A stretch of DNA of 61,529 bases from positions 1-61,529 of the forward strand of contig CAZSLA010000001.1 of the NCBI GenBank assembly GCA_964607795.1, read 5' to 3'. The position numbers and the translations under genes are program-made. This stretch comes from an uncultured Gammaproteobacteria bacterium. GTDB taxonomy: Bacteria; Patescibacteriota; Microgenomatia; UBA8517. The notes under the pieces were generated by a model, which did no database searches, was not told the DNA's origin, and saw nothing but the letters and a program-made list of their open reading frames with translations. Of the stretch, positions 146 through 58,000 are shown piece after piece; within the stretch, counting starts at the first letter, position 1, and each line of letters begins with the position of its first letter.

Positions 146-338
146 ACAGTCCAAAAATACTTCTAAAACAGACTCTCAACTATTAGACAATTTACTGGTC
201 GTGCTGTGCGATTTGATAATAGACTCTTTTATTATGAGGCAGCAGACGAAAGGCACTAAAACACGACATACTAAAGATGAACTCAAACAGTCCTTTCGAG
301 ACTCGAATAGCCGTCTTAGCAAGTCCGAAAGGGTTTGA
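138..338 (+). CDS. small hypothetical protein (66 aa) preceding the recombinase
   Basis: GAGGAGG at 122-128, 9 nt before ATG 138; ends 4 nt inside the recombinase reading frame; no motif recognised. Confidence 0.35.
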   Translation: MSKQSKNTSKTDSQLLDNLLVVLCDLIIDSFIMRQQTKGTKTRHTKDELKQSFRDSNSRLSKSERV

Positions 339-364
339 GTTCACTAGGACGGCTTTTTGAGTCT

Positions 365-2032
365 ATGAACACAACTAAACCAAGAAAACGCGCCATTTTG
401 TATCTAAGATTTTCTGATCCAAAACAGATGGGCGGATCAACTATTGAAGTGCAGGAGAAAATTGCACGAGCCTCCTGCGAAGTTGAAAATTTTGACGTAG
501 TAGACGTCATCAAAGATGAAGCGGTATCAGCGGACATCAAAAAGAGTAAACAAACACTTCGAGTAGCCCATCTTCTGGAGTTCTGTAAAGAAAGAAAAGG
601 GACTTTTGATGTGCTGGTCGTTTTCAAGCTGGATCGTTTTGCCCGCTCTCAAGAAGAACACCACTGGCTGCGTGGTCAACTCCTCAAAATGGATATTCTT
701 CTGCGATCTGCCACAGAAAAGATAGATGAGTCTCCTGCAGGTAAGCTTGTCGAGGGTGTATTAGCAGCAGTTAATGAGTATGACAATGAGGTAAGACGCG
801 AAAGATCACGCTTGGGACTATGGCGAAGAGTTGAACAGGGGTTATGGCCATGGTATCCGCCAATTGGCTATATGACAGATCCCAATAAACCCGCTGATGT
901 TAGATTGGTACCTCATGTACCCGATCCTGTTTGCAATGAAGCAATACCATACATCTTTACTCAATTTTCAACAGGAGTTGTCAGCAAGCCCGAATTATCA
1001 AGAGAATTGAAAAAAAGAAAGCTACGAAACTTCAGAGGTAAACTTTTGACATTTTCTGTCCAAACTTTAGATAATATTCTTGGCAACATTTATTATCCTG
1101 GTTATCTCAAGACAAATGAGGGTAAAATAGTAGAGGGGAAACATAAACCCCTCATTGAATTGAGTTTGTACCAAAAATGCCAAGATGTTATGAAGGGACG
1201 AAGTAACAACACAGACAAGACTCGTAAAAGATACCATCCTGACTTTCCGCTCAGAAAATTTGCTCATTGCGGGTTTTGCCACCATCCGCTAACTGCTGCA
1301 TGGTCTAACTCCGAACACTCTGGCAAGTATGCCCACTATTGGTGTTATAATTCTGAGTGTGAAAGATATAGAAAGACAATCCGTAAAGCCGATATAGAAG
1401 GAGGTTTTGGCTCATATTTAGCCACAGTAAAGCCATCAGACGTCCTCATAGACCGTTTTGACAAAGTATTTATGAAACGGTATGAACAAAGAGAAATTGA
1501 CATCAGAGGCGACTATGTAAGGCAAGTAGAAGTCGTCAAACAACTTGAGAGTGATAAAGAGTGGGTTATTGCACAAGCTAAAAAGGGCATTTTCAAAGAC
1601 GATACATTTAGAGATGAACTAGCAAAAGCAGAACAGAAGTTAACACTAGCCAAAATGGAGCTTACTCACATGCATGCAGAAGAAATGAATGTCGAGGCAT
1701 TACTTGCTTACGCTTACAATTTTATTCGAACCGTAGAAAATACTTGGTTAGACGCTCCTTTTGAGTCAAAGATCAAATTACAGAGGCTAATATTTCCAAA
1801 AGGAGTAGAGTATGCCAATGGAGAGTTTTCGAACCCCGAATTATCCCCTCTTTTCAAGCTAATCGGGGTTTTAGCCGATGAAAAATTAAGTTTGGTGACC
1901 CCGGAAGGACTCGAACCTTCAACCATCAGCTTAAAAGGCTGTTGCTCTGCCATTGAGCTACGGGGCCACGGAATTAGCCCACTTGGGCTTGTTATATTTT
2001 ACTCCAAAATAAAAATTGAGGCAAATAAGTAA
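365..2032 (+). CDS. large serine recombinase (resolvase-type N-domain, recombinase domain, zinc ribbon, coiled coil)
   Basis: AILYLRFSDPKQ catalytic-Ser context and VFKLDRFARS in N-domain; Cys cluster CGFCHHPL...YWCYNSEC; ATG 365 preferred over TTG 335; last ~45 codons are the antisense of tRNA-Lys so the functional C-terminus is uncertain. Confidence 0.85.
   Translation: MNTTKPRKRAILYLRFSDPKQMGGSTIEVQEKIARASCEVENFDVVDVIKDEAVSADIKKSKQTLRVAHLLEFCKERKGTFDVLVVFKLDRFARSQEEHHWLRGQLLKMDILLRSATEKIDESPAGKLVEGVLAAVNEYDNEVRRERSRLGLWRRVEQGLWPWYPPIGYMTDPNKPADVRLVPHVPDPVCNEAIPYIFTQFSTGVVSKPELSRELKKRKLRNFRGKLLTFSVQTLDNILGNIYYPGYLKTNEGKIVEGKHKPLIELSLYQKCQDVMKGRSNNTDKTRKRYHPDFPLRKFAHCGFCHHPLTAAWSNSEHSGKYAHYWCYNSECERYRKTIRKADIEGGFGSYLATVKPSDVLIDRFDKVFMKRYEQREIDIRGDYVRQVEVVKQLESDKEWVIAQAKKGIFKDDTFRDELAKAEQKLTLAKMELTHMHAEEMNVEALLAYAYNFIRTVENTWLDAPFESKIKLQRLIFPKGVEYANGEFSNPELSPLFKLIGVLADEKLSLVTPEGLEPSTISLKGCCSAIELRGHGISPLGLVIFYSKIKIEANK
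1893..1967 (-). tRNA. tRNA-Lys (anticodon UUU), CCA encoded
   Basis: Manual cloverleaf: acceptor GGCCCCG/CGGGGTC, D-stem GCTC/GAGC, anticodon loop CTTTTAA, T-arm GAAGG-TTCGAGT-CCTTC, 3' ACCA. Confidence 0.9.
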
Positions 2033-7249: not shown

Positions 7250-9379
7250 TTATGCATTTTTTAAGCTCCAGCGTTCGCGGGAAATTTTAAGCACCTTTTC
7301 CCGGTTTTGATTTCTGGATACGGGCAACGGCAGGGTATTGGCCAAAAATGGCCTTGCCGCGTGGCCGTCGATCATGAGCTTGATGGCAATTTGAAAATTG
7401 CTCAGATTGACCAGGTCATTTTCGCTAAAAACTTCGGCAAATTCCTTGTGGATGATAGCAGCATCCTCGGCGCCGATGGCAAAACTGATGAGTGAGCCAA
7501 CATTGCCCAAAATGGCCTTTTGTACTTCCTCTGGGATCTGGGCCATGTATTGGTTTGCAAGCATCAAACTCAGTCTGTACTTTCTGGCCTCGGAGAGGAT
7601 TTTAATAAAAGATGGAGTAGCAAAGTTTTGAAACTCGTCGACGTATAAATAATGGTCCACGCGCGTGTCTTCGGGTGTTTCCACCCTGTGCATGGCCGCA
7701 AGCTGGAATTTGGTAATGAGCACCGCCCCCAGTAGGGCCGCGTTGTCCTCGCCGAGTCTGCCTTGAGAGAGGTTGCATAGCATGATTTTGCCGGTATTGG
7801 CAATATTGTCTATGTGCATCGTGCTTTTGGGTTGGCCGATGATGCGGCGGATCATGGGGCTTGTCACAAATTGGCCAACTTTGTTTTGGATCGGAGCAAT
7901 GGCTTCTTTTTGCAGTCGATCGGGCATTTTTTCGTATTCGATTTTCCAAAAGTTAATTAGGCTTCGGTCGTCGATTTTTTGAAGGACATTATTGCGATAG
8001 CCTTTATCCGCAAGGAGTCTCAAGACATCGGCCAAAGTGGTGCTTTCGATTTGTGTGAGCGTGAGAAGACAATTGCGAAGGATGTATTCCATGCGCGCGG
8101 ACCAGACATTGGCCCAGATTTTGGTAAATACAGCCATGATGCCGCTCACCACAAGCTCAGCTTCTTCGCGGTTTGTTACTTCCAGGGGGTTAATGATAAT
8201 CGGATATTCGCGGTCCGCGGGATTAAAGTAAACAACATCATTTATTCTGTGAGCGGGGATGTAATCAAGTACGGTTTCGCAGAGGTCCCCGTGCGGGTCA
8301 ATGACGCTTAAGCCGCGGTCTTTTTTCAGATCATCAATTACCATGTTGGCAATCATCGTGGACTTGCCCGTGCCCGTTTTCCCCACAACCCACATGTGCC
8401 GGCGGCGGTCGCGGTCTTTTATGCCAAAGATGGATTCGTGGTTTTTAAACGGTGTCTTGGCAATAAAATTTATGGTTTTTTTGTTTTCCTCACTTAAATT
8501 TAAAGAAACGGGGAGGTTAGCCGGTGGTTCGGAAAGGACCGAGGTGCCCCAGACAATGTTTGCGGTTTTGATTTTCTCATTGGGTAAATGCCAAAGCGTG
8601 GCCAGTTCAATGATATTGAAAATGTCTTTGGAAGTGACCATGCGTTTTTTTAAATACTCCCGGGGGTTGCCGCGTTTTAAAAAAGACGAGCCTTTAGTCG
8701 CCAGGGAATTGCCGTCGCTTCTGGTGAATACGCCCATGGCGCTTTTAATTTCTGTTAGGGTTTTTTTTGAGTTTGCACCCAGCCTTATGGAGGTCCTGAA
8801 ACCGGGGTAAGAAATTTTTTCTTTTATTATGGATTCGTCCGGGTGTTTGAGATAAGCTCCTTCTTCAGTTTTACCGCCGCCGGTGTCGGCAAATCTATTT
8901 CCGGCGTTTTGCCAGCTGGTACCGGCGCTTTCCAGGGCAAATTGGATAATTGCAAATTCATCAGGGTCTCCTTTGGATAAAACAGACAAAACTGAAGACA
9001 AAGGATCAATGTCCAGAAAGCTTCCGTAGGTTGCTAATGGGTAATAATTACCCTTTCTTGTTGTTAGAGTCGTAACTTCCAGTTCGCGCTCTCCTATGGG
9101 GTCTTTACCATTTTCAATGATCACCAAAGGGTAATTGGAGCGAAGTTGAGTTTCTACAAAGGCTGCAAGTTCGATACTACAGGTAATGGCAAAGTTGATT
9201 TGCTGGTTCATAAGGACAATTTCCAAAGCTAAAGCCTCCGGGCGTTGGCCGAGGAGTCGCTGCCAGCTGGTGACGGAATTGATTTGCGTTAGTGTTGCCA
9301 AAAAGGTTTGGGCGGATTCGGGCGTGGTTTCAGAGTTTCTGGGAACTTTTAGAAATAATGTCGTCAGTTGATCCTGCAT
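7250..9379 (-). CDS. soluble P-loop ATPase of the TraD/TraG/VirD4 coupling-protein type (FtsK/HerA superfamily)
   Basis: Walker A VVGKTGTGKST, Walker B HYLYVDEFQNF, ARKYRLSLMLANQ motif; no N-terminal TM helices. Confidence 0.7.
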   Translation of the reverse strand: MQDQLTTLFLKVPRNSETTPESAQTFLATLTQINSVTSWQRLLGQRPEALALEIVLMNQQINFAITCSIELAAFVETQLRSNYPLVIIENGKDPIGERELEVTTLTTRKGNYYPLATYGSFLDIDPLSSVLSVLSKGDPDEFAIIQFALESAGTSWQNAGNRFADTGGGKTEEGAYLKHPDESIIKEKISYPGFRTSIRLGANSKKTLTEIKSAMGVFTRSDGNSLATKGSSFLKRGNPREYLKKRMVTSKDIFNIIELATLWHLPNEKIKTANIVWGTSVLSEPPANLPVSLNLSEENKKTINFIAKTPFKNHESIFGIKDRDRRRHMWVVGKTGTGKSTMIANMVIDDLKKDRGLSVIDPHGDLCETVLDYIPAHRINDVVYFNPADREYPIIINPLEVTNREEAELVVSGIMAVFTKIWANVWSARMEYILRNCLLTLTQIESTTLADVLRLLADKGYRNNVLQKIDDRSLINFWKIEYEKMPDRLQKEAIAPIQNKVGQFVTSPMIRRIIGQPKSTMHIDNIANTGKIMLCNLSQGRLGEDNAALLGAVLITKFQLAAMHRVETPEDTRVDHYLYVDEFQNFATPSFIKILSEARKYRLSLMLANQYMAQIPEEVQKAILGNVGSLISFAIGAEDAAIIHKEFAEVFSENDLVNLSNFQIAIKLMIDGHAARPFLANTLPLPVSRNQNREKVLKISRERWSLKNA

Positions 9380-11320: not shown

Positions 11321-11956
11321 CTGAAGAGAAAGGTCGCAAGTTTTTACAAACGCAGACAGTGGATGCCTTGGTATCAACTACCGAAAAAGGACGCACAAGA
11401 CCGCGATAGTCGCCGGAGAGGAGCCTTGATCCCGTGATCCGGCGGTTTCCGAATGGGATAACCCGATCTCCTTTAGGGGATCATTCCTTGGCCAAATCTC
11501 TGCCTTTGGCAGAGTACTAACTGAGGAAAGGGAACCACCCGAACTGAAACATCTAAGTAGGGTGAGGAAGAAAAATCAAGCGAGATTGCCTTAGTAGCGG
11601 CGAGCGAAACGGCAAAAGCCCAAAGGCCATGAGATGGCAGCAATGCTTATCTCACGGCCGGTTGTAGGAGCCCAATGTGGGCCCTTGATTAATAGTGGAA
11701 CGGCATGGAATGGCCGATCAAAGAGAGTGAAAATCTCGTACACGAAATTAACTCAAGGCCCTAGGGATGTCCTGAGTACCACGGTGCACATACATTGTGG
11801 GAATCTGGGGGAACCATCCTCCAAGGCTAAATATGGTTGGTAACCGATAGTGAACTAGTACCGCGAGGGAAAGGTGAAAAACAGGGCTGTAAGCCCGTTG
11901 AAATAGTATCTGAAACTGTTTGCGAACAAACCGGTAGAGCCTGTTCGTAGAACAGG

Positions 11957-12073
11957 AATTTTCAAGGACCAATTCTCAATTTTCATTGAATTTTCAATGT
12001 ATTAATTTTCAATATTTGAAACATTGATGCATTGGTATTTGATTGTAAATTGTAAATTGTAAATTGGAATTTC
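11957..12073 (+). other. AT-rich intervening sequence (IVS) at the helix-25 position of 23S
   Basis: ~115 nt of AT-rich sequence with tgtaaat x3 between conserved flanks, absent from E. coli-type 23S; arms partly self-complementary. Confidence 0.75.
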
Positions 12074-12643
12074 CCGCTCTGCGAGCGGGTGATACCGTGC
12101 CTATTGAAGAATGAACCGGCGAGTTGTTTCATAGTGCTTGCTTAACCCCGCGAGATGTGTCTATAGCCACTTTGGCTTGGGCCTATCTCACGGGGGGAGG
12201 CACAGGGAAACCAAGTCTGATAAGGGCGCTTAAGGTACTATGATACAGACCCGAACCCAGGTGATCTAACCATGAGCAGGGTGATGTCCGATGACCATCG
12301 GACGGAGGCCCGCACCGTTGTAAGTTACAATTTGCTCGGACGACTTGTGGTTAGCGGTAATATGCCAATCGAACCTGGAGATAGCTGGTTCTCCCCGAAA
12401 GGTCTTTAGGGACCGTGTTCTAGCAAAAACGTAGCAGGGGTAGAGCTACTGGATGGGGTGCTGAGCGTAAGCAAGGTATCTCAATCAAACTCCAAATACT
12501 GCTATGGTATGCAGAATAGACAGCCCCGGAGGGCTAAGCTTCCGGGACAAAAGGGAAACAACCCAGACTTTCAGCTAAGGCCTCTAAATTTTAACTAAGT
12601 TTTAAAGGAAGTTTTGTTCCACAGACAGCCAGGAGGTTGGCTC

Positions 12644-12681: not shown

Positions 12682-12761
12682 TGGTCAAGGAGCAGGGCGC
12701 CGAAGATGTATCGAGGATTAAGTTAAATGCCGAAGCTAGAGATGCTTGTGCTTTGCACTGG

Positions 12762-12917
12762 TAATTTCTGATTAATCTAATTGGCCTAATTTTTAAACAA
12801 CAACCAATATCCAATTACACAATCCCAGTATTTTGTTTTTATTGACAGTTTTAGTAATTGGCAATTTATAAATTGGTATTTTATTAGAAATTAGGTATTA
12901 GAAATTAGGAATTTCCT
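12762..12917 (+). other. AT-rich intervening sequence (IVS) at the helix-45 position of 23S
   Basis: ~155 nt AT-rich insert between GCCGAAGCT... and ...GGTAGGGGAGCG; internal 14-nt tandem tattagaaattagg x2. Confidence 0.75.
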
Positions 12918-13699
12918 GAGCAGAGCGCAGGTGTGGTAGGGGAGCGCTCCGATGTGCGGTGAAGTTTCAGTGTAAACTGAGGTGGAGCTATCGGAGGTGA
13001 GAATGCCGGTATGAGTAGCGTACAAGTCCGGTGGGAATCCGGACCGCCGAATGCCCAAGGTTTTCCCGGTGAAGTTCGTCTGCCGGGAGTAAGTCGGCTC
13101 CTAAGGCGAGGCCATATGGCGTAGTCGATGGATAACTGGTTAAAATTCCAGTACTTGTATTAGATCGTTTACCTGCGTAAGCAGGTTCTAGCTGGGGGTT
13201 GACAAGGCAGGATGGTTGTCGCTCCTTCGTGAAGTGGAGTGCATGCTGCAAAATAGTTTTGGTTGGAAAATCCGCCAAAATGTTCAATTGAGCAGTGTGC
13301 GGAGCCTTGAGAGATCAGGGTCACGATAATCCATTCAGCCTGCGAGAAAAGGCTCGCAGCGAGATCTAATATAAGCCGTACCGCAAACCAACACAGGTGG
13401 GCTGGTTGAGTAAACTAAGGCGAGCGAGAGAAGGAGGGTTAAGGAACTCGGCAAACAAGCTGGACGTAACTTAGGGAGATGTCCTGTCCCGCACAATTTT
13501 GATGCGGGATCGCAGCTAACGATTGTCATTCGACTGTTTATCAAAAACACAGGTCCATGCAAAGTTGAAAAACGAAGTATATGGGCTGACGCCTGCCCAG
13601 TGCCGGTAAGTTAAGAGGATGGGTGACCCCCGCTTAGCGGGGATAGCTCTGAATCGAAGCTCCGGTAAACGGCAGCAGTAACTATAACTGTTCTACGGT

Positions 13700-14398
13700 A
13701 GGAAATTTAACTGCCGTAGTAAAATCTGACTATATGCTGGAAACTCTGAGTATCCGGTGCTAGTTGATATTTGTATTTTATTCGGATTAGAATAAATTGA
13801 TGTCAACTGATAATGCATCTGGTGCAGACAATCAGCAGGAAAGATTAGAAACAATCGGCTGGATTGTAGGATTTACTGATGGAGAGGGATGTTTTTCCGT
13901 CAGCATAGTTCGAAATCAAACGAGTTTGTTGGGTTGGCAGGTAATGCCTGAATTTGTAATAACTCAAGGAGAAAAAAGCCTAGAGGCTTTACGCAAAATT
14001 AAGCGATTTTTTGGCTGTGGAAATATTTTTATTAATAGAAGATATGATAACCACACAGAAAATCTATATAGATTTTGTATACGATCTCTAAGAGATATTA
14101 ATGAAAAAGTTGTTCCTTTTTTTAGGAAACATCAATTGCAGACTGCAAAAAGTGAGGAGTTCAAGCATTTTGCAGCAATTATGGACATGATTAAAAAAGA
14201 GAGCACTTAAAACATGAAGGCATTGTTGAAATAGCACAAATTGCCAGCTTAATGAACGCAAAAAAGCCAAGAATGTTGCTAAAATCCTCAGACACTAATA
14301 CGTCAGACCCCGATTTGATCGGGAAAGATAGAGTGCGAACTGCATAGCGATATGCAGAACAATAATTAGGTGACTAATTATTAATTAACGTGTTTAAG
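13700..14398 (+). mobile_element. intron (group-I-like) in 23S domain IV, E. coli ~1931 region, carrying a LAGLIDADG ORF
   Basis: Interrupts AACTATAAC..GGTAG|CGAA.TTCCTTGTCGGGTAAG; boundary ambiguous by 2 nt; P1-like 9-bp hairpin ctacggtag/ctgccgtag with U-G pair at t13699. Confidence 0.75.
13797..14210 (+). CDS. LAGLIDADG homing endonuclease (single-motif type), C-terminally truncated by a frameshift
   Basis: IGWIVGFTDGEGCFSV motif; conserved C-terminal part (EHLKHEGIVEIAQIASLMN) continues in another frame after the A6 run at 14193-14198. Confidence 0.8.
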   Translation: MMSTDNASGADNQQERLETIGWIVGFTDGEGCFSVSIVRNQTSLLGWQVMPEFVITQGEKSLEALRKIKRFFGCGNIFINRRYDNHTENLYRFCIRSLRDINEKVVPFFRKHQLQTAKSEEFKHFAAIMDMIKKEST

Positions 14399-14514: not shown

Positions 14515-14548
<34 letters not shown>

Positions 14549-15057: not shown

Positions 15058-15880
15058 CTGATGCCGTAAGACATTTCGGCATGACAAGTCTAAACTGTCT
15101 CTCCCTTTAGACGCTTTTTGAAGTCAATGGTAGAAATTATTGTCTTTTTGTCTAAATAGAAAGAAGGGATATAAATCTGGCTATATGCTGGAAACTCTCA
15201 GGATATTTATCTACTAGTATATAATTTAATTACTAGTAAAAATGGTAAATTGGAGACAATCAGCAGGAAAGGCTAGTTTTGAGTCTCTTGTCAGCGGATG
15301 GCTATCTTGTCGGTTTTGTTGAAGGTGAAGGAATGTTTTATATAGGAATAGTTCCCTCAAAAGAAACAAAATCGGGTTGGCAGGTGATCTATTTTTTAAA
15401 GTATCTCAAAATCCTGTCGGAAGGCAGGTTTTAGAGTGCTTCTTAAAAAGATAAGATTGCGGCTATATTAAAAAGAATAGTAAAACTGATAAGACAGATA
15501 AATCCTTAGCATATGTGGTGCGAGATTTGAAAAGCCTACAAAAAAGGTAATTTCATTTTTTGAAGGTAAATTGGTAATCAAACGGCAGGTGTTTGAACAA
15601 TTCAAACAAGTTGTTAATATGGTTGCCGAAAGAAAGCACCTAACGCACAAGGGTATATCTGAAATTTTGGAAATTGCATACGATATGAACACTCGTAAAA
15701 GAAGAGTCGATAAGAATGCAATACTCCAAGGTTATATCAAGCTAGAATCCTCACAGGCCATACGCCAGAGTCCGGTTTAACCGGACAAGATATGGTCGGA
15801 CCCCGGTAGCGATATCGGGAGCTAATGGGAACAAGAAACCATTAGCCGGACAATACATAATTGTCTAAGTAACAAGAATG
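15058..15880 (+). mobile_element. second intron in 23S domain V (after GTGAGACAG, E. coli ~2600 region), related to the first
   Basis: Interrupts CGTCGTGAGACAG|..TCGGACTCTATC; shares aatctgRctatatgctggaaactct and gtcRgacccc blocks with the first intron. Confidence 0.75.
15242..15780 (+). pseudogene. decayed LAGLIDADG homing endonuclease gene
   Basis: GDNQQERL..DGYLVGFVEGEGMFY motif, then frameshift at the T-run near 15395, in-frame TAA, and C-terminal part ERKHLTHKGISEILEIAYDMN (ORF 15571-15780); ATG 15242 is out of frame with the motif. Confidence 0.75.
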
Positions 15881-16231: not shown

Positions 16232-16379
16232 GTCTCGGTGAAGATAGCGATGTGGACCCACCTGACTAGCCTCGCCTAGCTTTGGCTAGGCGGGCCCATT
16301 CCGAACTCAGAAGTGAAACGCATCAGCGCCGACGATAGTGCTTGGGCAACCTGGCGCGAAAATAGGATATTGCCGGGAC
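16232..16379 (+). rRNA. rrf: 5S rRNA with ~29-nt internal hairpin insertion (148 nt)
   Basis: CCCACCTGAC...CCATTCCGAACTCAGAAGTGAAACG core; helix I GTCTCGG/CCGGGAC; extra tagcctcgcctagctttggctaggcgggc at 16267-16295. Confidence 0.85.
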
Positions 16380-46446: not shown

Positions 46447-47740
46447 GCATTACCAAAAGTACACGCTAACTAATGGCCTGCGCGTAATTATCATCCCCAT
46501 GCCTGCTGTAGCATCCGCTACAGTCACCATCTGGGCAAATGTAGGAAGCAGCATCGAGCCCAGGAGTAAGGCCGGTATTGCCCATTTTTTTGAGCATATT
46601 GTTTTTAAAGGGAGTATTAAGCACCCCAGTGCTAAAGCAATTTCCGAGGCAGTTGATAATTTCGGCGGCGAGCAAAACGCTTTCACCGGTAAAGAAATGA
46701 CGGGTTTTTACATCAAAGCTCCCGTTTCTAGATTTGATGATGCGGTGGACATTTTAAGCGATATGGTCTTTAATCCCCTGATCCCCAAAGCAGAAGTGTC
46801 CAGGGAAAAGGGAGTGATCAAGGCGGAGCTGGACATGTATCGTGATACCCCGGTGCAGCATATTTATAATATTTACGAGGAAGAGGTGTTTAAAGCTACG
46901 CCCCTAGAACACACAGTCATTGGTACAAAAGAGACAATTGATACAGTCGTGCGCCAGGATTTCTTGCAGTATCAGAGAAATTTCTATGTGCCCAAAAATA
47001 TGCTGGTTACGATCGCGGGAGGGGTAGAGGCTAAACATGCAAAGAGATTGGCGGCTAGATATTTGACACTAGAGCCGAAAAAAGGCAAGGAGAAAATCCA
47101 AAAATCTAATGTCTATCATCTAAAATCTAGCAGTCCTCGTATTCGCATCGAATACAAAAAAACGGATCAGGCACATATGCTTTTGGGTTTTCGCGGTATC
47201 GGCTTAAAAGACAAAAAAATGCGTTTTGCCGAAGACGTCCTGCGGGCAATTCTGGGCGGCGGCATGAGCAGCCGAATGTTCACTGAGGTGCGCGAGCGCC
47301 GTGGCCTGGCATATGCCGTAAAAACCAGCAATTTTAATTATATCCATACCGGCTCTTTCCAAACGTATGCCGGTGTAGAGCCGGGTAAAGCCGTAGAGGC
47401 TTTGAAGGTGATTTTGGCTGAATACACAAAAATGACCGATATTAAAGCCGCAAAAATTACGACCGAAGAGCTGATAAAGGCAAAAGAATTTTTAAAAGGC
47501 CATCTTGCACTGTCCCTGGAGGATACAAGTGAAGTGGGGGAAATCTATGGCGTGAATGAGCTTCTCATTGGCGAGATTATCACTCCAGAAGATATGATAA
47601 AGGCGATAGACAAGGTAAGCCTGGAGGATGTGATTGCTGTAGCAAAGCACCATTTTAAGTCCCAAAGGATGTCTTTGGCAGTCATCGGGCCGTATAAATC
47701 TGAGGCTCCTTTTTCATCTTTAATTTACAATTTCCATTAA
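46445..47740 (+). CDS. M16-family zinc peptidase (pitrilysin-like)
   Basis: HFFEHIVFKG (HxxEH) motif near the N-terminus; start moved to ATG 46445. Confidence 0.88.
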   Translation: MHYQKYTLTNGLRVIIIPMPAVASATVTIWANVGSSIEPRSKAGIAHFFEHIVFKGSIKHPSAKAISEAVDNFGGEQNAFTGKEMTGFYIKAPVSRFDDAVDILSDMVFNPLIPKAEVSREKGVIKAELDMYRDTPVQHIYNIYEEEVFKATPLEHTVIGTKETIDTVVRQDFLQYQRNFYVPKNMLVTIAGGVEAKHAKRLAARYLTLEPKKGKEKIQKSNVYHLKSSSPRIRIEYKKTDQAHMLLGFRGIGLKDKKMRFAEDVLRAILGGGMSSRMFTEVRERRGLAYAVKTSNFNYIHTGSFQTYAGVEPGKAVEALKVILAEYTKMTDIKAAKITTEELIKAKEFLKGHLALSLEDTSEVGEIYGVNELLIGEIITPEDMIKAIDKVSLEDVIAVAKHHFKSQRMSLAVIGPYKSEAPFSSLIYNFH

Positions 47741-47760
47741 TCAAGTTACAATTACTACAA

Positions 47761-50003: not shown

Positions 50004-53000
50004 TCATGGGCTACCTTCATCCGGGCCAAATCTTACCGCACCTTGGTTTATCACCTTCCTAATTTGGGTGGGGGAGAGGGCATAATTATAAATCCTTACA
50101 TCATCGATATTTCCCTCCATATATCCCACACCCTCAATTCTCCCGATATCTAGATCAGTGGCATTTAAGCCCGCTGTTGTAGTTACTGCCACATGCTGCC
50201 ATGAACCGGTAGCTAAAGTTGTTGTTAGCTTTCCGTTTACATAAATTGTTTCTGTCCCAAAACCGTTTGCTGTTACTGTTCCGTTGTTTACCCACACATA
50301 ATCGGTTCCATTTAAATCAATAAAATATTCTGTAGATGTTGTTGGTTTAACCCAGAAAGAAACAGTAGATACAATAGAGGGGCCGCTCCCTACATCTACA
50401 AAATCATTCGTTCCATCAAAACCAAGACTTCCATTAAATTTTCCCGTTGTCCCGTCATTCCACATCTCAGTGGCGTCTCCGCTGTTGCATGTTCCTACGG
50501 TGTCATTATCACCTGAAGTATCACCTGGAATTATTGTTCCATTATAACCGTTTCCTGAGGAATCGTATGCCGTTGTACCTTGACATTCATCAAAGAGATA
50601 GTGTGCAATCGGTTTGCCGCGATTGTAATCGTAGGCGATCTGGGCGGGAGTACGGGCATAGTTGTAAATTTTGACTTCATCAATGAGCCCGTTAAAGCGA
50701 TATGCTCCACCGTAGAGATTAGCAATAGCAAGTCTTGAATCATTGGTTCCGATGGCAGTAGAATAATCTCCTGATGCCACAAGGGTGCCGTTGACATAAA
50801 TTTTAACTTCGTCAGTTCCACCTGCATTTTTGTCATAAGTGAAGGCAACATGAGCCCATTTATTATTGGAAAAAACATCATCTGAAGTATACGCGCGTTC
50901 GGCGTTATTGATCCAAACGCTTAGGTTGTTTGTCCCCGTTCCTCTAGAAGAGAATGTCCAGGCTGTTTGATAGCTTTTATCAACAATACGGGTATACTTT
51001 CCTTGATTTGCTCTGGATTTTATCCATGCCTCAACCGTGATGGCGTCAGTAATATCCAGAACAGAACCAGTTGTGTCCTGATACCATGCATATTCGGAAG
51101 TTCCGTCAAAATCAAGACAGCTGCCAAATTTACACGGAACCCAGTCTGAATTATCAATATAAACTAAAGTCATGTTAAGTCCATTGCCTGAGTGGTCGTA
51201 AGTATATGAGGAACCTGTGTTTTCATCCATAGGATAATAAGCCACAGGTGGGTTCCCAGCTCCATCTGTTAAATTATTCGCCTCATTTTGGCCGGTGCCT
51301 AAGTTTATGGCTGAACCTGCGTTCATATCTATTTTAATTTGGTCTTCTGTCAGTGCAGAGGAGTAGATTTTGACTTCATCGATATAACCGGCGAAGGCAG
51401 TGTTAGTAGCGACAGTATCATCAGCATCATATTCACCAACAGTAAAATCACTTGCTTTATCCTCAAGCCCGAGAAAAGATCCATTGGTACTATTTTGTCC
51501 TACAAATTTCCCATCAACATACAATTTTAAATCTCCCATTGCTCCCGCAGTCCCGCCATTAAAGGTAAAAGCCACATGATACCAGGTATTTTGTGATATC
51601 TGATCATTTGCTTGGGAGGCAGTAATGGCTTGTGAAGCGGACTCATCATATATCTGTACTCCAAAATTACCTGTTGTATCAGCATCATCATTCTCCAGAT
51701 ATAATCTGTAATTTGCCATGTTATTTGTATCATCCCATTTGGCGATAATAGCATCTTTTTCGGAAGAACCAGGCATGGTAGTAACATATACCCACGCACT
51801 ACCTGAAAAAGGCTCATTCCCATTAAAATCAACCTCACTATCATTTGCTGTTGCTATGCTTACTTCTTCTCCTGCAGCATCCCACAATAAACATCCATTA
51901 ACTTTACACTTAGATTCAGTTTTCCAAGTTAAGTTACTATCTACTATTCCATTTTCGTTTCCAATAGAATCATATGCTGTTGTTCCATACTGTTCATCAA
52001 ATTTCCAGTATAGTACTTGGCTACCTATTGGGGAACCTCCTGTTGGGTGGCCGGCGTTCATGTCTTCAACAATTTGCTGTGGAGTGCGGGCATAGTTATA
52101 TATTTTAAATTCATCAATATAGCCGTCAAAACGGTTTGCAGAGCCGCCACCAACCAAAATATTGTCTGTATCAGTATTGGGGGAACCGTCACCGGCTGTG
52201 CTTGATCCTCTATTGATTCCATTTATCCACAAAGTTAGCTCGTCATCGTCATCATCTTCATAGGTCATGCAGATATGGTTCCATGTATTGACAGGAATTG
52301 CGTTTGAAACAACCAGGCTAGCATCAGTAGCCGCCAGATCAATTGTTCCTTGAATATCAAGATAGCCCATTTGTTGTTTGAGATTTTGAGTTTGTATATA
52401 GATCTCCGAGCCTTTCCTGAATACTTGTCCATAACCATTCTGTCCATCAGATCGAGCATAAATCCAAGCACAATATGTAACGGCATTTTTCAGGCCCTCG
52501 TTCATATCAATAAGACTGGTATTTGTTATGGTGGCATAATTTTCAGATGCATCGAAGTTTAATGCGCTGCCGAATCTTCCGGGAACCCAGTCGTTTTGGG
52601 TTATGCTAGTAAGTGTGGCATTAAGCCCATTACCAGATTTGTCGTAAGAAGTTGAAGTGCCAGAATTTTCATCGAATGGAAGGTGGAGTACTGGTCCTGG
52701 AGCCCAATTATAAAGATCCTTAACCTCTTTTTCTGATAGGGCACGGTTGTAGATACGGACTTCGTCAACGTTGCCTTTAAGGCTCTCATCTGGTCTGCCC
52801 CCAATTTTTATAGTTTCTCCTGTACTAACATTTCTAGTGGTGGTACCCTTGCCCATCTGTTGGCCATCTAGAAATATTATTACTGCATTACCATCATGCG
52901 TAACTGTTACCAAATGCCATCGATTTTCTCCAACTATCGCTGGTGTAGATATATAAGGGCCATTATGATATATCCACTCAAATTTGTTCTGAGAGCCTGC

Positions 53001-54590
53001 GTTCCAATAATAATATAAATCCCATCTATCACCTGCCCCGGAATAACCTGAAACAATTGGTTGATATCTTTTTGTTAAATCTGAAATTTTTACCCAAGCA
53101 GATACAGTTATCGGTGTAGAAAGATTATTAGTGCTTAAGGGGGTATTGACATAATGCTGGTTTCCATCAAAAATTCCGCCATTGCTAAATTTACCTGCAC
53201 CGGTAGTGGGTACGCTGCATCCTACTCCATAACACGAGGCAGTCCCGTTATGCTCATTCCCAGAGGCATCTTTGACTTCTCCGGCTGCACCGGTCCAGCT
53301 TGTTTCATCCATCTTCCAATATCCAACTAATCCTTCTGATAAATATTTCTGTGTTTTTACCCCCAAAACTTCAGCATAAAAGTTATAATCAACCTTCACT
53401 TGAGTCGCCGAGCGGGCATAAGCGTAAATCCTAACTTCATCAAAGAAACCTTCGTATTGTTGAGCCGCACCATTTCGAGTGCCTAGGTGAACATCAATCG
53501 AATTTTTAGTTGACCCAGTTAAAGTGTTCTGAGTGATGGTAATAGCTTGTTCTTCCGCGTCGAAATAAACCTTGACTCCCGAAGCATTTCCAGAACCATC
53601 ATAGGTAACCACAAGATGGTGCCACTGGTTATTAGCATAATCCAAACCGTTGCTTGTGCGAATTTCAATAGTATTCGATCCATAAGTATTAACTAGTTGA
53701 AAATAAATGTAATCACCTGAACCTGTTTGAATATTCCAGCCTTCGTATGGGGATGAACTATTTTGTTTTGAAACTAAAGTATAAATACCGGCATGAGGAA
53801 CCTTCATCCATAAACTAACCGAAAAAGCATCAGTACGATCAAAATCTAGATAATCCCGATCGCCAAAATTAATTGTATCTCCCTGGTCAAACCACAAACA
53901 TTTTCCTGACAGACAAAGCTCTTCAGTTTTCCAGTCAGCATTGCTTTTTGCTCCATCATTTCCATTTTGAGTTGAATCACACACATCATTACTTCCTCCT
54001 GGGCATGTATCATCTACTCCTTCATCCAACTTCCACCAGGCAATAGGCCCTGGAGCATTTTCTTCACTTCCCATGCTCCCGATAGTGTAATTACTAGCTT
54101 CAGTTGCAAATCCAGAAGAATTAAAGCCGTTGGGAGCGCTGGAATTGCCATAATACATATAAATTACTTGTGTACCCGCCGGAAAAGTATCAAAAAAAAC
54201 ATCAATATCAGTATAAGAAGTTCCACAGCCTAAATTAATATATGGATTAATATAATAGGGGAGAAGTTCCCCATTTTGTTTAGTAAAACGTATATCTCCA
54301 CAATCTACCTGAAATTTGCCAGATGCCGAGGTATCTAAATATGGTCGGCCGCCAGCTCCATCAAAAGCAATATAAACATTATTCTCTGCTGTTGTGTTAT
54401 TAGTAACCAGTATCTTTTTTCTATACATCCAGCTATCATTCCACCACTCAGCCTCAGCTCCGCCCGGTTTGTAAAGCATAATTAAAGCAATCGGCGCAAG
54501 CACGGCAATTACGCCAAGGGCAATCCATGTTCGCAATTTGATTTTTGACATAAGACGATAGATGTTAGATTTTAGAGATTGCATACTCAT
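50004..54590 (-). CDS. giant surface protein: TM anchor + DUF2341-like module + ~7 LamG/concanavalin-like repeats (1528 aa)
   Basis: WWNDSWMYRKKI...CGDIRFTKQNGELLPYY N-module; repeated units ending DEV[RK]IYN.A[LR][ST]; paralog of 55051-59076. Confidence 0.85.
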   Translation of the reverse strand: MSMQSLKSNIYRLMSKIKLRTWIALGVIAVLAPIALIMLYKPGGAEAEWWNDSWMYRKKILVTNNTTAENNVYIAFDGAGGRPYLDTSASGKFQVDCGDIRFTKQNGELLPYYINPYINLGCGTSYTDIDVFFDTFPAGTQVIYMYYGNSSAPNGFNSSGFATEASNYTIGSMGSEENAPGPIAWWKLDEGVDDTCPGGSNDVCDSTQNGNDGAKSNADWKTEELCLSGKCLWFDQGDTINFGDRDYLDFDRTDAFSVSLWMKVPHAGIYTLVSKQNSSSPYEGWNIQTGSGDYIYFQLVNTYGSNTIEIRTSNGLDYANNQWHHLVVTYDGSGNASGVKVYFDAEEQAITITQNTLTGSTKNSIDVHLGTRNGAAQQYEGFFDEVRIYAYARSATQVKVDYNFYAEVLGVKTQKYLSEGLVGYWKMDETSWTGAAGEVKDASGNEHNGTASCYGVGCSVPTTGAGKFSNGGIFDGNQHYVNTPLSTNNLSTPITVSAWVKISDLTKRYQPIVSGYSGAGDRWDLYYYWNAGSQNKFEWIYHNGPYISTPAIVGENRWHLVTVTHDGNAVIIFLDGQQMGKGTTTRNVSTGETIKIGGRPDESLKGNVDEVRIYNRALSEKEVKDLYNWAPGPVLHLPFDENSGTSTSYDKSGNGLNATLTSITQNDWVPGRFGSALNFDASENYATITNTSLIDMNEGLKNAVTYCAWIYARSDGQNGYGQVFRKGSEIYIQTQNLKQQMGYLDIQGTIDLAATDASLVVSNAIPVNTWNHICMTYEDDDDDELTLWINGINRGSSTAGDGSPNTDTDNILVGGGSANRFDGYIDEFKIYNYARTPQQIVEDMNAGHPTGGSPIGSQVLYWKFDEQYGTTAYDSIGNENGIVDSNLTWKTESKCKVNGCLLWDAAGEEVSIATANDSEVDFNGNEPFSGSAWVYVTTMPGSSEKDAIIAKWDDTNNMANYRLYLENDDADTTGNFGVQIYDESASQAITASQANDQISQNTWYHVAFTFNGGTAGAMGDLKLYVDGKFVGQNSTNGSFLGLEDKASDFTVGEYDADDTVATNTAFAGYIDEVKIYSSALTEDQIKIDMNAGSAINLGTGQNEANNLTDGAGNPPVAYYPMDENTGSSYTYDHSGNGLNMTLVYIDNSDWVPCKFGSCLDFDGTSEYAWYQDTTGSVLDITDAITVEAWIKSRANQGKYTRIVDKSYQTAWTFSSRGTGTNNLSVWINNAERAYTSDDVFSNNKWAHVAFTYDKNAGGTDEVKIYVNGTLVASGDYSTAIGTNDSRLAIANLYGGAYRFNGLIDEVKIYNYARTPAQIAYDYNRGKPIAHYLFDECQGTTAYDSSGNGYNGTIIPGDTSGDNDTVGTCNSGDATEMWNDGTTGKFNGSLGFDGTNDFVDVGSGPSIVSTVSFWVKPTTSTEYFIDLNGTDYVWVNNGTVTANGFGTETIYVNGKLTTTLATGSWQHVAVTTTAGLNATDLDIGRIEGVGYMEGNIDDVRIYNYALSPTQIRKVINQGAVRFGPDEGSP

Positions 54591-54617
54591 AATTTACAAT
54601 TTCCAATTATCAATTTT
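54591..54617. repeat. left arm of imperfect inverted repeat bracketing the four-helix-bundle gene
   Basis: aatttacaatttccaattatcaatttt; 22/27 complementary to 55018-55044. Confidence 0.8.
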
Positions 54618-54643
54618 CAGTGTATGGATTAATTTCATAATTC

Positions 54644-55015
54644 TCAATGTTTATTTCTAGATGACCTAGAAATTTTTGAAAATATCAACAAAAGTTCTTG
54701 TGTTTCTTGCCAAAGTTCTTTGATTTGCTCTTTCTTTTCGGGGTTTGCCCTGGCCAGAAGCCTCAACCAATGTTTAGCTTCCTTGGTTTCTTTTTTGCAA
54801 ATTCCTATTTTGTGTATAAAATCTCTCTTGCTTTCAGATTCATTAGCCTCGCAGTAATTTACCCCCATTGACCCGTCGGATCCAACAAGTTGGTCAATTA
54901 TTCTTTTATTAAAAGCAGTTATTTTTATGGGTTTGACCAGGTCGATAATTGCCTCAGCTAATTTTGCAGTTCTTTCTTCTAGGTCAAATTGGTAATTTTT
55001 TAATTGATTATTCAT
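54644..55015 (-). CDS. four-helix-bundle protein (23S rRNA intervening-sequence protein family, Avd-like fold)
   Basis: IIDQLVGSDGSMGVNYCEANESESKRDFIHKIGICKKETKEAKHWLRLL matches the family pattern Q..RS..S...N..EA....S..DF..K......E..E...WL. Confidence 0.8.
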   Translation of the reverse strand: MNNQLKNYQFDLEERTAKLAEAIIDLVKPIKITAFNKRIIDQLVGSDGSMGVNYCEANESESKRDFIHKIGICKKETKEAKHWLRLLARANPEKKEQIKELWQETQELLLIFSKISRSSRNKH

Positions 55016-55017
55016 TG

Positions 55018-55044
55018 AAAATTGGTCTTTGTAAATTGGAAATT
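55018..55044. repeat. right arm of imperfect inverted repeat bracketing the four-helix-bundle gene
   Basis: aaaattggtctttgtaaattggaaatt; contains the 13-mer ttgtaaattggaa identical to 12057-12069 in the 23S helix-25 IVS. Confidence 0.8.
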
Positions 55045-55050
55045 ATTACT

Positions 55051-58000
55051 TTACTCTCCAAACCTCACCACCACCCCGCCATTAAATAATTTTTTCACCT
55101 GGGTAGAGGATAGGGCATAGTTAAAAATTCTAACATCATCAATCTGGCCAGAATAATAATTAGTGCTAATGCGGCCAATACTCATATCATTTGCTGTGAT
55201 TGCGCTGCCACTGACTACTACCACATGATGCCAATTGTTGTCTGGGAAACTTGTTGTTGCCTTACCGTCAATGTATACCGTTTCCGTACCAAAACCTCCG
55301 ATGCTCATAGTGCCACCAGACATTGCTACTGTGTCGCTGGATGATAACTGTAGAAAACTTTCAGAGGAGCCGTTGGGTTTTGCCCAAAAACTTACAGTAT
55401 AAATATCGCTTCGTGTGATGTTTCCGATATCTACATAATCCCCATCTCCATCAAAATTCAAACTCGCTCCATATTTCCCGGCAGCGCCGGAGCCCCAGGC
55501 GGAATTTGCAGTATTGCACGTTCCAACTCCCGCACTGTTTCCACCAACTGTTGTTACGATTAAGGTTCCATTGTTTCCGTTTTTGGATGAATCATGGATT
55601 GTCGTTCCTTCGCACGCATCAAACTTCCAGTGCGCCACCGGTGCACCGCGATTGTAGTCATAGGCGATTTGGGCAGGCGTACGGGCGTAGTCGTAGATGC
55701 GGACGTGGTCGATTTGGCCCGAAAAAGGCTGAAACAATCCAACATTATCTGAAGCTGTGTATGAACCAATTCTGAAAGGGTTACTAGATTGGAAATCTTG
55801 CCCGTTCCAGATAGAAATACTTGCTGAGGCGTCAAATTTTCCATCCACATAAATTGATGCAGCGCCATCTCGATCAATTGTTGCAACAATATAATGCCAC
55901 TGATCATCTGCCACATTTGCAACTCCTTGAATGATTACGTCGCTCCCCCCGCTACCCCTAATGAAAATTTTTGCTTGACCCATGTTGGTGGCGATGCCAT
56001 ATCGAAAATTTGTATTTGAGGCCCTTGCTTTGCTTAGGGCGTACTGTTGACTGCCAGACACTGTTGTTTTTAGCCAAAGCGATATAGTCATATCCTTTGT
56101 TCCCATGTCCAGGATATCGCCGTATTCCGTGTAATCATCCACCCCATCAAACTCCAAACACGCCCCCTGTTTACATCCCGATTTCCAGGTCGCGCCGTTG
56201 ACGGTGCCGTCGTTGGCATTGCCGCTGGAGTCGTAGGCAAGCGTGTCCTGCTTCTCGTCAAACTTCCACTCGGCAATCGGCGGAGCGCCCGCGCCGTCGG
56301 CGAGCTCGTCGGCTTCGTCGCTTCCGCCAAAAGACATCGTAGTTTTCGGTACGGGGTTCTCCACACTTTCTATCGGATGCCCAGCGTTCATATCCTCAAT
56401 AACTTGTGCTTGCGTCCGGGCATAGTTATAGATTTTGACTTCATCAATGATGCCATTTAACGTTCTGCTCCCAGCATTACCTCCTATCCAGAAGTGGACT
56501 TTTGGACTTGCAGTACCGGTCGTAGTACTACTATTTACTCCATGTAATATGCCATCAACATAAAATTTTGTGTTAGCAAAATCAACCTCATTTTGGGAAG
56601 TTCCTACCACTGCATATGCTAGGTGATGCCATTGGCCATCATTTACATTGATAGGAGTACTGGCATAATTAATGCCGTATAATTTACCTGCAATTACTCC
56701 AGGATTACTAGAATTCCAACCAGGGTGGATAGTACCATAGTCTCCTGTCACAAAAGAAGCTAAAACATTGAAAGCAACTTTTCTGATTTTTACCCAAGCC
56801 TCAAACGTATAAGTATTAGGCTGTAAGACAGTTGAAGTGCCGGCATTAATGTAATCATCAACTCCGTCAAATTCACATGCTTTCCCAATTTTTCCAACCA
56901 CACTACAATTCATCCCTGTGTTATTACCCCCATCAATGGTAGAGCCATTATTTCCATATCCGGATAAATCATGAATTGTTTTCGCGTCTCCACTTACACC
57001 TTCATCCATAGGCCAATACCCCACCGGCCCAGGTGCCCAATTATACAAAGCTTTTACTTCATCAACCGAAAGTGCACGGTTATATATGCGTGCTTCATCC
57101 ATTTTGCCATAAAAATAGTCTTCGTCGGCATTGTTGCGTCTGCCAATAAATAAGTTGGTATTGGTTTTTTGAAGAGGTCCAAGATTTGCATCATAAGTAC
57201 ATTTTTCTTGACCATTAACATAACCCTTCATGGTTTTTTGATCATAAGTAATAGTAAAAAGATTCCATTGATCTAGCAAAGAACCTGATATAACACAATT
57301 GGTAGTTCCTGAGGCAGTTCCTGATTCATTCCAAATTTCATACCGCCATGAAGTAGCTGAATTATTGCTTCGTCTCAAACGGAAATTACATCCGTTGGCT
57401 GAACAGTTATAAGAGAGGAGACCTTCATCATCTTCATATGCTGCTTGGGTGGGGTAATAAACCCATACTGAAGCCGTAAAAGAATCCAAATTACCGGGAT
57501 ATAAAGTAGATATATAATCATTGTCACTACCAAAAGCTATACCGGAACCAAACTTTCCACCCACCTGGTGTCTAATTTCATAGGCACAATTGTCGGGTGC
57601 TTGGGCTAGGGCAGTACTCACGGTAATAGTTTTTGTAGCTCCGGTGTAGTCAGAAATAACTCTCTCTGTCCCACTAATAATAGATCCACAAGCACCAGTA
57701 AACCGCAAAATCATCCCGTTATAGGCATCATCTGTTGTTGAAAGGCTGTCTGAGTCAGAATCAATGAGTGTCGTGGTACTATTGCCGCTCGCGTCAGAAG
57801 TCCCTGCTTCTTGGGCATTAGTCAGTGTTCCATTATTACCGTTTCCCGAAGCATCAGCTACGCTGGTTCCGGAGATCTCATCCATCTTCCAATATCCAAC
57901 TAATCCTTCTGATAAATATTCTTGTGTCTTTACTCCTAAAACCGTAGCGTATTGATTAAAATCTGCCTTTACCTGATCTGCAGTTCTGGCATATGGATAA

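Follow-up and report, generated by a model that had tools for sequence, protein, structure and literature searches.

What is a gene of the S23p / 23S_rRNA_IVP family, wrapped in what resembles the stem of a 23S rRNA intervening sequence (IVS), doing in the spacer between two giant protein-coding genes? The question is raised by the 61,529-nt stretch of contig CAZSLA010000001.1 analysed here (hereafter the window), from a genome that GTDB places in the Patescibacteriota, in which two IVSs, both lacking an open reading frame (ORF), interrupt the 23S rRNA gene. The origin and purpose of rRNA IVSs and of the S23p / 23S_rRNA_IVP protein have been debated since about 1990. We establish below the anatomy of the four-helix-bundle (4HB) gene cassette in this spacer, its conservation, the matching of its two arms, its co-orientation with neighbouring genes and its kinship with the rRNA IVSs. 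We propose, with a probability of about 0.55, that it is an ORF-bearing representative of a widely distributed family of stem-loop cassettes of the IVS type, borne in mRNA and, by analogy with the rRNA IVSs, probably a substrate of RNase III.

The 460-nt spacer (54591-55050) separates two minus-strand genes that Pfam identifies as encoding giant DUF2341/Laminin_G_3 (LamG) proteins, an upstream gene of 1341 aa (55051..59076(-)), whose stop codon lies just before the 5' arm, and a downstream gene of 1528 aa (50004..54590(-)), whose start codon comes immediately behind the 3' arm. The single ORF within it (54644..55015(-), 123 aa) takes up the loop between the paired arms. Read on the minus strand, which is the transcribed one, the 5' arm (55010..55046), defined by an inverted-repeat search and from the sequence itself, is AATTTCC AATTTAC AAAGACC AATTTTC A-ATG; it starts 4 nt past the upstream LamG stop and enters the ORF start codon (55015-55013) in phase. 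The ORF stop codon (54644-54646) is followed by a non-repeat linker (54626..54643(-)), which is unpaired in the folds, and then by the 3' arm (54589..54625(-)), TGAAAAT TGATAAT TGGAAAT TGTAAAT T, which complements the 5' array and was detected both as an inverted repeat and by Tandem Repeats Finder (TRF; period 7 at 54591-54616). This arm abuts the ATG (54590-54588) of the downstream LamG gene, and in two homologous loci, L014 and L054, the 3' arm likewise borders directly on the start codon of the gene that follows. Both arms are tandem heptamers, with AATTTNC repeated in the 5' arm and the complementary unit in the 3' arm, and the inverted-repeat search (54589-54625 with 55010-55046) gave them a length of 37 nt and a complementarity of 81%. 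The register is that of the initial annotation, which had described an ORF bracketed by complementary arms filling almost all of the LamG spacer, and the cassette does fill this spacer. Apart from the cassette, the two rRNA IVSs are the only places where TRF reported period-7 arrays of this type; the other AT-rich spacers of the window have none.

No terminator-like site was found in the cassette region, and a single 10/12 promoter-like match, whose -10 box falls inside the ORF, was not counted as evidence for a promoter in the arms. Terminal inverted repeats of the kind used to recognise transposons and miniature inverted-repeat transposable elements are present in the window cassette and in related loci. 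The cassette, whose sole ORF is the 4HB gene, gave no transposase domain and no PADLOC or PHROGs match, and on the absence of any match in the last two a defence-system or phage gene was discarded.

The family assignment made from the translation alone in the initial annotation was upheld by profile hidden Markov models, as the ORF scored 47.2 bits against PF05635 (cut-off 33.8) and 66.4 bits against TIGR02436 (cut-off 24). The 123-aa protein matched 2RLD in a phmmer search at 2.5e-10, and an AlphaFold2 model of the monomer is a helical bundle (pLDDT 83) whose top nine Foldseek matches are chains of 2RLD and 2GSC, with query-normalised TM-scores of 0.57-0.70 and target-normalised ones of 0.64-0.75. 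Both structures are S23-family pentamers; the oligomeric state is taken from them, the window protein having been modelled as a monomer. Avd, the accessory protein of diversity-generating retroelements (DGRs), appears at rank 42 among the structural matches (chain 8UB7_C, TM-score 0.53). More than 3500 homologues were found, with 67-79% identity across Patescibacteria, and 44 columns are invariant in an alignment of 21 homologues; judged from these sequences, the protein family is strongly conserved.

Pairing between the flanks of the ORF is well beyond what their composition predicts. The duplex of the 5' flank with the 3' flank has a free energy of -39.4 kcal/mol, compared with a mean of -20.1 and a best value of -32.6 kcal/mol in 200 shuffles, none of which reached the observed value, and the arms of the window cassette on their own, closed by a GAAA loop, gave z-scores of -2.1 to -2.5. 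The locus of a strain-level relative, L001, which has the same gene order and 97-99.6% identity over the region, shows a cleaner version of the same structure. Its 5' arm, AATTTCC AATTATC AATTTTC, is one unit shorter and complements the unchanged 3' arm perfectly over 24 bp; the resulting stem has a free energy of -28.8 kcal/mol and a z-score of -4.2. The window has AATTTAC AAAGACC where L001 has AATTATC, that is, an extra unit and a weaker stem. The substituted unit resembles the 'caaggacc' of the helix-25 rRNA IVS described below, which hints at exchange between arrays.

To place the cassette in a wider context we fetched 168 loci carrying homologues of the 4HB gene, labelled L001 onwards. 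The same layout was recognised in about 150 of them, from Patescibacteria, Planctomycetota, Verrucomicrobiota and one DPANN archaeon. In nearly all loci the 5' side consists of tandem heptamers ending in ...C-AATG, and complementary heptamers begin at, or overlap, the stop codon. Self-identity at a lag of seven nucleotides is 0.43 on both flanks, against a background of about 0.29 at neighbouring lags (76 loci), and adenine-rich positions recur at -1, -8, -12, -19, -26 and -33 relative to the ATG. The mean free energy of the duplex between 5' and 3' flanks (145 loci) is -33.2 kcal/mol, as opposed to -17.4 kcal/mol with shuffled partners, -18.1 kcal/mol with reversed partners, a control that retains composition and repeats, and -22.4 kcal/mol when partners were swapped between loci. 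The heptamer itself varies from cassette to cassette, with dialects such as AATTTTC, CTAATTN, AATGTCA and TCAATAT, and AATGACG in Planctomycetota and Verrucomicrobiota, but both arms of any one cassette always share the matching heptamer. This is clearest in L096, L022, L140 and L058, each of which contains two cassettes 1-2 kb apart with different dialects, each matched internally; the complementarity therefore belongs to the cassette and not to the composition of the genome. Similarity of dialect correlates modestly with similarity of the proteins (0.61 versus 0.55). The number of heptamers per arm ranges from about three to nine with no sharp mode, so that a match of five heptamers to a pentameric protein is unsupported, the measure of array extent having failed on one third of the loci, which show a conserved 4-nt phase shift.

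The homologous cassettes are also largely uniform in orientation. The upstream neighbour is co-oriented in 129 of 132 cases and the downstream neighbour in 121 of 131 (92-98%), and the median gaps to these neighbours, 53 and 72 nt, are about the length of an array. The neighbours themselves are diverse: 263 neighbouring genes fall into 173 clusters, 135 of them singletons, and among the contexts are genes for tRNA synthetases, for TGT and for Wzy-like proteins as well as a cas operon. In mRNA spacers, too, there are ORF-less hairpins of this type, namely in L006 (1105-1275, between IleRS and RecO), L002 (7350-7545), L045 (2070-2225) and twice in L026. Taken together, these loci show that the full IVS layout is mainly a feature of operon spacers, and that the copies in rRNA are a minority and often lack an ORF. 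In L002 a 1040-bp insertion sequence (IS; 2951-3990) encoding a 280-aa protein lies within the 5' heptamer array, flanked by an 8-bp duplication, caatttcc; L004 is otherwise identical and lacks it. We had considered L002 and L004 as a presence/absence polymorphism of the cassette and discarded the idea, since the difference between them is this unrelated IS.

The two rRNA IVSs of the window are built in the same way. The 23S rRNA gene (11336-15101(+)) carries insertions at helix 25 and helix 45, which cmscan places after model position 583 (~11944..12090(+); dialect AATTNTC / TGTAAAT) and at model position 1218 (~12755..12926(+); dialect CTAATTN / ATTAGAA). Both form strong hairpins (-58.3 kcal/mol, z = -7.6 for helix 25; -63 kcal/mol, z = -6.1 for helix 45), and TRF detected period 7 at 12883-12913 in the latter. 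These two ORF-less elements have the location of a classical IVS; the cassette, at 54.6 kb among protein genes, does not, although it has the long enclosing stem of a classical IVS in its 37-nt, 81% complementary arms and, like an ORF-bearing IVS, an S23p-family ORF in the loop after tandem heptamers (cf. PMC4990558). The similarities between arms and IVSs that had first been noticed proved exact: 54603-54622 matches 11969-11988 at 18 of 20 positions, 55029-55041 is identical to 12057-12069 over 13 of 13, and the similar block reported for the helix-45 IVS, taattggcaatttataaattgg, was located there. These plus-strand matches are mirrored by sense-to-sense matches that are at least as good (cassette caaagaccaattttcaATG and IVS caaggaccaattctcaattttcattgaattttcaATG), because the arms are palindromic in type. 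By themselves the matches within the window are borderline (blastn-short E 0.015-0.06), and a shuffle test of them is partly circular, as its pattern is derived from the two copies themselves.

Comparison across genomes is far more telling. When the 16S, 23S and 5S rRNA genes of the window were searched by blastn against the 168 loci, the only matches lay at 23S positions 616-738 and 1514-1582, which are the two IVSs. About 40 loci match these segments, with E-values down to 4e-14, and most of the matches directly abut the 4HB ORF. The claim that arm and IVS resemble each other beyond chance, which is marginal for the window alone, thus holds across genomes, and so does the proposal that the cassette and the ORF-less rRNA IVSs are elements of one kind, given that arms from many genomes match both IVSs and nothing else in the rRNA genes. 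The helix-25 IVS retains a leader of the cassette type, '...cattgaattttcaATG', which runs into an ATG at 11997 followed by TAT TAA (M-Y-stop), and in an alignment its 5' arm is collinear with the leaders of the cassettes in L010, L020 and L014 through the in-phase ATG. The simplest reading is that this IVS was once a cassette whose ORF has been lost. Over 50 nt, the 3' arms of the helix-45 IVS and of the cassette in L050 share 90% identity, and the CTAATTN dialect of this IVS is found around 4HB genes elsewhere. Both 23S IVSs look like miniature derivatives of cassettes, a reading suggested by the leader and ATG that the helix-25 IVS still has.

Two further features of the window bear on how the cassette is to be understood. 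A second, cassette-like 4HB gene (59091..59660(-), 189 aa) with a 4helix_suffix domain (TIGR04258, 75.7 bits; TIGR02436, 34.3 bits) lies directly upstream of the 1341-aa LamG gene, so that the gene order is 4HB-LamG-4HB-LamG. The initial annotation had noted neither this gene nor the heptamer make-up of the arms, their sense-to-sense alignment with the IVS or the spread of the layout through the family. It has more than 8000 homologues, is 100% identical in L001 and has a local GC content of 53% against a background of 44%. Its 3' flank (59053..59088(-)) consists of tandem 9-nt units, ACGACATAT in the sense direction (TRF period 9/18, with inverted repeats), which are complementary to units at its 5' end (59651-59678) and inside the ORF (59505-59544); the complementary array pair is ATGTCNTAT / ACGACATAT. 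Related 9-nt units are translated as K-S-Y or K-T-Y at the N-terminus of the protein and in two loops. The flanks of this second family in L089, L090 and L092 also contain 9-nt units, with less regular inverted symmetry. In L089 the homologue (2501-3079) lies directly upstream of a 1845-aa LamG gene, in L092 (2501-3094) it is placed within a type I-C CRISPR-Cas operon, with cas7 and cas4 on either side, and some JGI records label members of the family 'restriction system protein'. The other feature is a solitary array of the 5' type, AATTTAC AATTTCC ATTAATC AAGTTAC AATTACT ACAAATG (47721..47760(+); blastn-short E 0.001), which overlaps the end of an M16 peptidase gene, enters the ATG of the NDK gene and agrees with the cassette arm at 16/16 positions; nothing complementary to it was found downstream.

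On our preferred reading, the cassette would be transcribed as part of the RNA of its co-directional neighbours. In the operon transcript the two arrays would pair over about 25-37 bp and loop out the ORF, and RNase III would cut the stem as it does in the rRNA IVSs. Cutting would separate the cistrons of the giant genes, release the 4HB RNA and expose the start of the downstream gene, otherwise held within the stem. The family as a whole would be a largely selfish passenger that moves rarely and resides in transcribed spacers and at the tips of rRNA hairpins; its conserved 4HB protein probably acts on the repeats of the element itself. No rnc gene was present among the scanned ORFs of the window, which is a small part of the genome.

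Several observations weigh against this reading. The fold of the whole 481-nt region is unexceptional (z = -1.15), as expected because the loop is coding sequence; the arms are nonetheless paired in both the minimum free energy and the centroid structures. The stem of the window itself is a weak version of the structure. The 4HB ORFs of the window and L001 differ at eight codons, of which one change is synonymous and seven are non-synonymous, and several of the eight affect family-invariant positions in one strain or the other; the corresponding ratios are 3:0 for the second 4HB gene and 33:35 for the LamG genes. The window copy may be under relaxed constraint and perhaps decaying, as has been argued for Coxiella, although the numbers are small. 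None of the 168 homologous loci lies inside rRNA, as judged by blastn with the 16S, 23S and 5S genes of the window; ORF-bearing copies within rRNA are known here from the literature alone. Pairing is as strong in the antisense as in the sense direction across the 145 loci (-33.4 and -33.2 kcal/mol, with 621 and 570 G-U pairs), so that nothing marks out the sense RNA, as opposed to the DNA, as the target of selection; a strand-specific G-U bias, which we had considered as proof of selection at the RNA level, gave a neutral result. The largest cluster of neighbours is that of the DUF2341/LamG giant proteins (12 of 263), which could point to a host function.

The evidence for movement is similarly divided. 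The suggestion that the element is mobile or duplicative agrees with the diversity of contexts and the coexistence of ORF-bearing and ORF-less forms, but not with the lack of other traces. No target-site duplication was seen by eye at the ends of the window cassette, where the ends of the arrays are hard to delimit, no empty site was found among the loci examined, and no identical copies were seen in different contexts: the identical proteins P0016 and P0094 each occur in one context among the fetched loci. Paired copies within one locus are only 28-57% identical.

A bolder form of the proposal, which we regard as tentative and rather unlikely, is that the IVS elements are a distinct, ancient class of self-recognising elements spanning Bacteria and DPANN archaea, in which the Avd-like 4HB pentamer binds the heptamer arrays of its own element and drives the stem-loop's excision, protection or re-insertion into transcribed spacers and the tips of rRNA hairpins. 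Each subunit would bind about one heptamer, on RNA or single-stranded DNA, and ORF-less hairpins, both rRNA IVSs and those in spacers, would be non-autonomous derivatives served in trans. The Avd protein of DGRs would be a domesticated relative, and dialects that track protein lineage would reflect co-evolution of protein and repeat.

The position of the arms at the gene junctions invites a different explanation, which we consider unlikely, namely that the host has domesticated the 4HB gene, together with its arrays, to control neighbouring genes, especially those for giant surface proteins. The starts of both the 4HB gene and the downstream gene would be hidden in the stem until ribosomes reaching the end of the upstream gene melt it and so couple translation, and the 4HB protein, perhaps bound to the arrays, may provide feedback regulation, neither mobility nor RNase III being necessary. 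Such a device would fit the placement of the 5' array right behind the upstream stop and the end of the 3' array at the downstream ATG, as well as the strong conservation of the protein. It would also fit the occurrence of a 4HB gene ahead of both LamG genes of the window, of a homologue of the second 4HB gene again ahead of a giant LamG gene in L089, and of DUF2341/LamG genes, mostly downstream, as the largest neighbour cluster, followed by other giant surface proteins, PilC-like and Wzy-like proteins. It is harder to reconcile with a neighbourhood in which 135 of 173 clusters are singletons and which extends to tRNA synthetases, TGT, a cas operon and Wzy-like genes, or with the 1:7 ratio of synonymous to non-synonymous changes between strains, which argues against strong host-level constraint on the window copy. 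Moreover, a module serving a single neighbour leaves the ORF-less arrays in rRNA helices and in other spacers unexplained.

The equality of sense and antisense pairing, with its symmetrical use of G-U pairs, is what would be expected if the arrays worked as single- or double-stranded DNA, as recombinase sites or as sites of replication slippage or fold-back comparable to attC or the ends of IS200/IS605 elements, and the RNA stem were a by-product. Arms that are specific to each cassette would be expected if they were copied together, heptamer number differs between strains both here (window and L001) and in Coxiella, and an IS has inserted within one array (L002). Against these points, no recombinase, transposase or integrase lies in or next to the cassettes, the only recombinase of the window (335-2032) being 52 kb away, and no target-site duplication was seen. 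Furthermore, the 92-98% co-orientation and the in-phase start and stop junctions point to constraints of transcription and translation, and the rRNA copies occupy exactly those helices for which excision at the RNA level is documented. We therefore judge a DNA-level recombination element to be improbable, and retain the mRNA-borne, IVS-type cassette as the better account.

The shared fold and Pfam family of Avd (PMC10053308), with chain 8UB7_C at rank 42, and the plausibility of giant surface proteins as targets raise the idea that the 4HB protein is the Avd of a DGR that diversifies the LamG proteins. We reject this role for the window, as its scanned ORFs gave no reverse transcriptase (RT) and its direct repeats no pair of template and variable repeats (TR/VR). 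No RT domain was found in the scanned ORFs of at least 100 aa (the main, non-nested ORFs outside the rRNA genes, excluding nested ones of 101-194 aa and the few that overlap rRNA) or among the neighbours in L001-L008 and L089-L092. The direct repeats at 49.9-61.5 kb are only paralogous LamG segments of 63-76% identity, none of them TR/VR-like, and PADLOC gave no match; a DGR is accordingly very improbable. Equally negligible is a chance similarity of AT-rich, low-complexity spacers with no true element behind it, for although the arm-IVS matches within the window are short (E 0.015-0.06) and the region is AT-rich (37% GC), period-7 arrays are missing from the other AT-rich spacers, 0 of 200 shuffles reach the flank duplex, and the decisive, comparative evidence from other genomes refutes it through duplex statistics, the dialects of paired cassettes, IVS segments matched by blastn at E-values down to 4e-14 and matched arms in about 150 loci, including those with the GC-richer heptamer AATGACG in Planctomycetota.

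Other observations in the window concern its rRNA and LamG genes. The 23S rRNA gene contains further insertions at 13758-14400, with a LAGLIDADG_1 endonuclease ORF (13797..14210) in an AT-rich insertion that is probably an intron of the kind common in rRNA of the Candidate Phyla Radiation (CPR); no group I intron was found at 13758-14400 at the Rfam gathering threshold. The 16S and 23S genes are 5.4 kb apart (5872-11336), and between them lie protein-coding genes, among them a TraG/VirD4-like coupling protein gene (7250..9379) and an unknown ORF of 368 aa, as well as tRNA genes. A large serine recombinase (335..2032) lies upstream of the 16S gene beside tRNA genes, and an integrated element, conjugative or mobile, may be present within the rRNA region. 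A perfect 31-nt tandem repeat shortly before the 23S gene (11081-11150; 2.3 copies, 100% identity) overlaps the 5' end of a tRNA gene (11142-11215), and the 5S rRNA match (16234-16378) is 145 nt long against a model of 120 positions, so that a small insertion is possible. Most genes of the window have no Shine-Dalgarno-like sequence, though its 16S rRNA ends in CCUCCUUU, and translation initiation in the source organism seems to be largely independent of Shine-Dalgarno pairing; we dropped the missing Shine-Dalgarno sequence as a trait of the cassette because most window genes share it. The upstream LamG gene encodes 1341 aa in the window and 1020 aa in L001, owing to an indel of about 930 nt in domain number (window 56325-58553; L001 1442-2737). 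Divergence from L001 is uneven along the locus, at 0.4% around 58.5-60 kb, 5.6% at the LamG C-terminus and 0.7% in the downstream LamG gene, which suggests recombination.

How much of this is new has to be judged against what is already known, namely ORF-bearing and ORF-less rRNA IVSs and members of the protein family outside rRNA. A literature search, whose incomplete coverage makes it weak evidence of novelty, returned no prior report of the whole IVS layout around non-rRNA genes, of arms as cassette-specific heptamer arrays, of cassettes as co-oriented passengers of operons, or of ORF-less rRNA IVSs that share arms with mRNA-borne cassettes. The model put forward here would comprise processing of mRNA by RNase III at the stems, binding of the heptamer arrays by the 4HB protein, and an autonomous and non-autonomous pair of ORF-bearing and ORF-less forms, and it gives annotators a rule for recognising such cassettes. 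It would also explain the 'association' of the protein with cas, restriction and surface-protein operons, and it warns that these may reflect passenger insertions and not functional links. 23S rRNA IVP is included in a published list of CRISPR-associated genes (PMC10910872), and the cas and restriction associations of 4HB genes may be passenger insertions of this kind.

Among known systems, integron cassettes resemble this one in being promoterless, co-oriented single ORFs with imperfect inverted repeats at their bounds. They differ in having attC on one side only and in requiring IntI and attI, neither of which is present here. Avd shares the fold and Pfam family of the cassette protein and forms a pentameric nucleic-acid-binding assembly, but the RT, TR and VR are missing here, and a wrapping of inverted heptamers is undescribed for Avd genes. 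Intergenic arrays of heptamer repeats are also familiar from cyanobacteria as short tandemly repeated repetitive sequences. The Correia elements of Neisseria are co-transcribed inverted-repeat elements that are processed by RNase III and alter the fate of mRNA, and repetitive extragenic palindromic (REP) and enterobacterial repetitive intergenic consensus (ERIC) elements are intergenic hairpins. Like the ORF-less copies described here, these are hairpins with terminal inverted repeats that lie in operon spacers and are co-transcribed, and by analogy the Correia elements are the closest functional counterpart of the ORF-less copies. They are unlike the cassette in having no ORF, an unrelated sequence and no tandem heptamers, and they are not known to occur in rRNA helices. 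The TAACTGA arrays of Beggiatoaceae, Cyanobacteria and Bacteroidetes are likewise heptamers placed right before start codons, without a Shine-Dalgarno sequence, with variable copy number and in a patchy set of taxa, but they are direct repeats on one side of the gene, and neither a complementary partner nor a link to PF05635 is described for them (PMC4679880).

The closest parallels are the rRNA IVSs themselves. In the helix-45 IVS of Coxiella burnetii the S23p ATG directly follows three to four tandem heptamers, the number of which varies between strains; the terminal stem measures 28 bp and is cleaved by RNase III at the first heptamer (PMC4990558). In CPR bacteria, short non-intron rRNA insertions occur at the classical IVS sites (23IS2, 23IS4), and a few 23S_rRNA_IVP ORFs are found among the rRNA insertions (PMC11270868). 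The ORF-bearing IVSs, which comprise those of Coxiella, the Leptospira IVS ORF and the 23S_rRNA_IVP ORFs of CPR, are like the cassette in enclosing a PF05635 ORF in a stem-loop with terminal inverted repeats, in having tandem heptamers of strain-variable number before the start codon (PMC4990558; window versus L001 here), and in residing in highly transcribed RNA without a promoter of their own. The cassette differs from the Coxiella IVS in lying in an mRNA spacer and not in rRNA and in its heptamer (AATTTNC as opposed to GACAGAT), and it is in Coxiella that excision by RNase III has been demonstrated. The two ORF-less IVSs of the window lie at the same helices as those of Salmonella, Yersinia, Campylobacter, Rhizobiales and CPR bacteria and form similarly long hairpins, yet they share heptamer dialects with the 4HB cassettes while having no ORF, the helix-25 IVS retaining only ATG-TAT-TAA. 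IVSs have long been proposed to be relics of mobile elements in which the ORF served mobility (summarised in PMC4990558). In the light of these comparisons, rRNA IVSs look like one form of a wider family of transcript-borne stem-loop elements.

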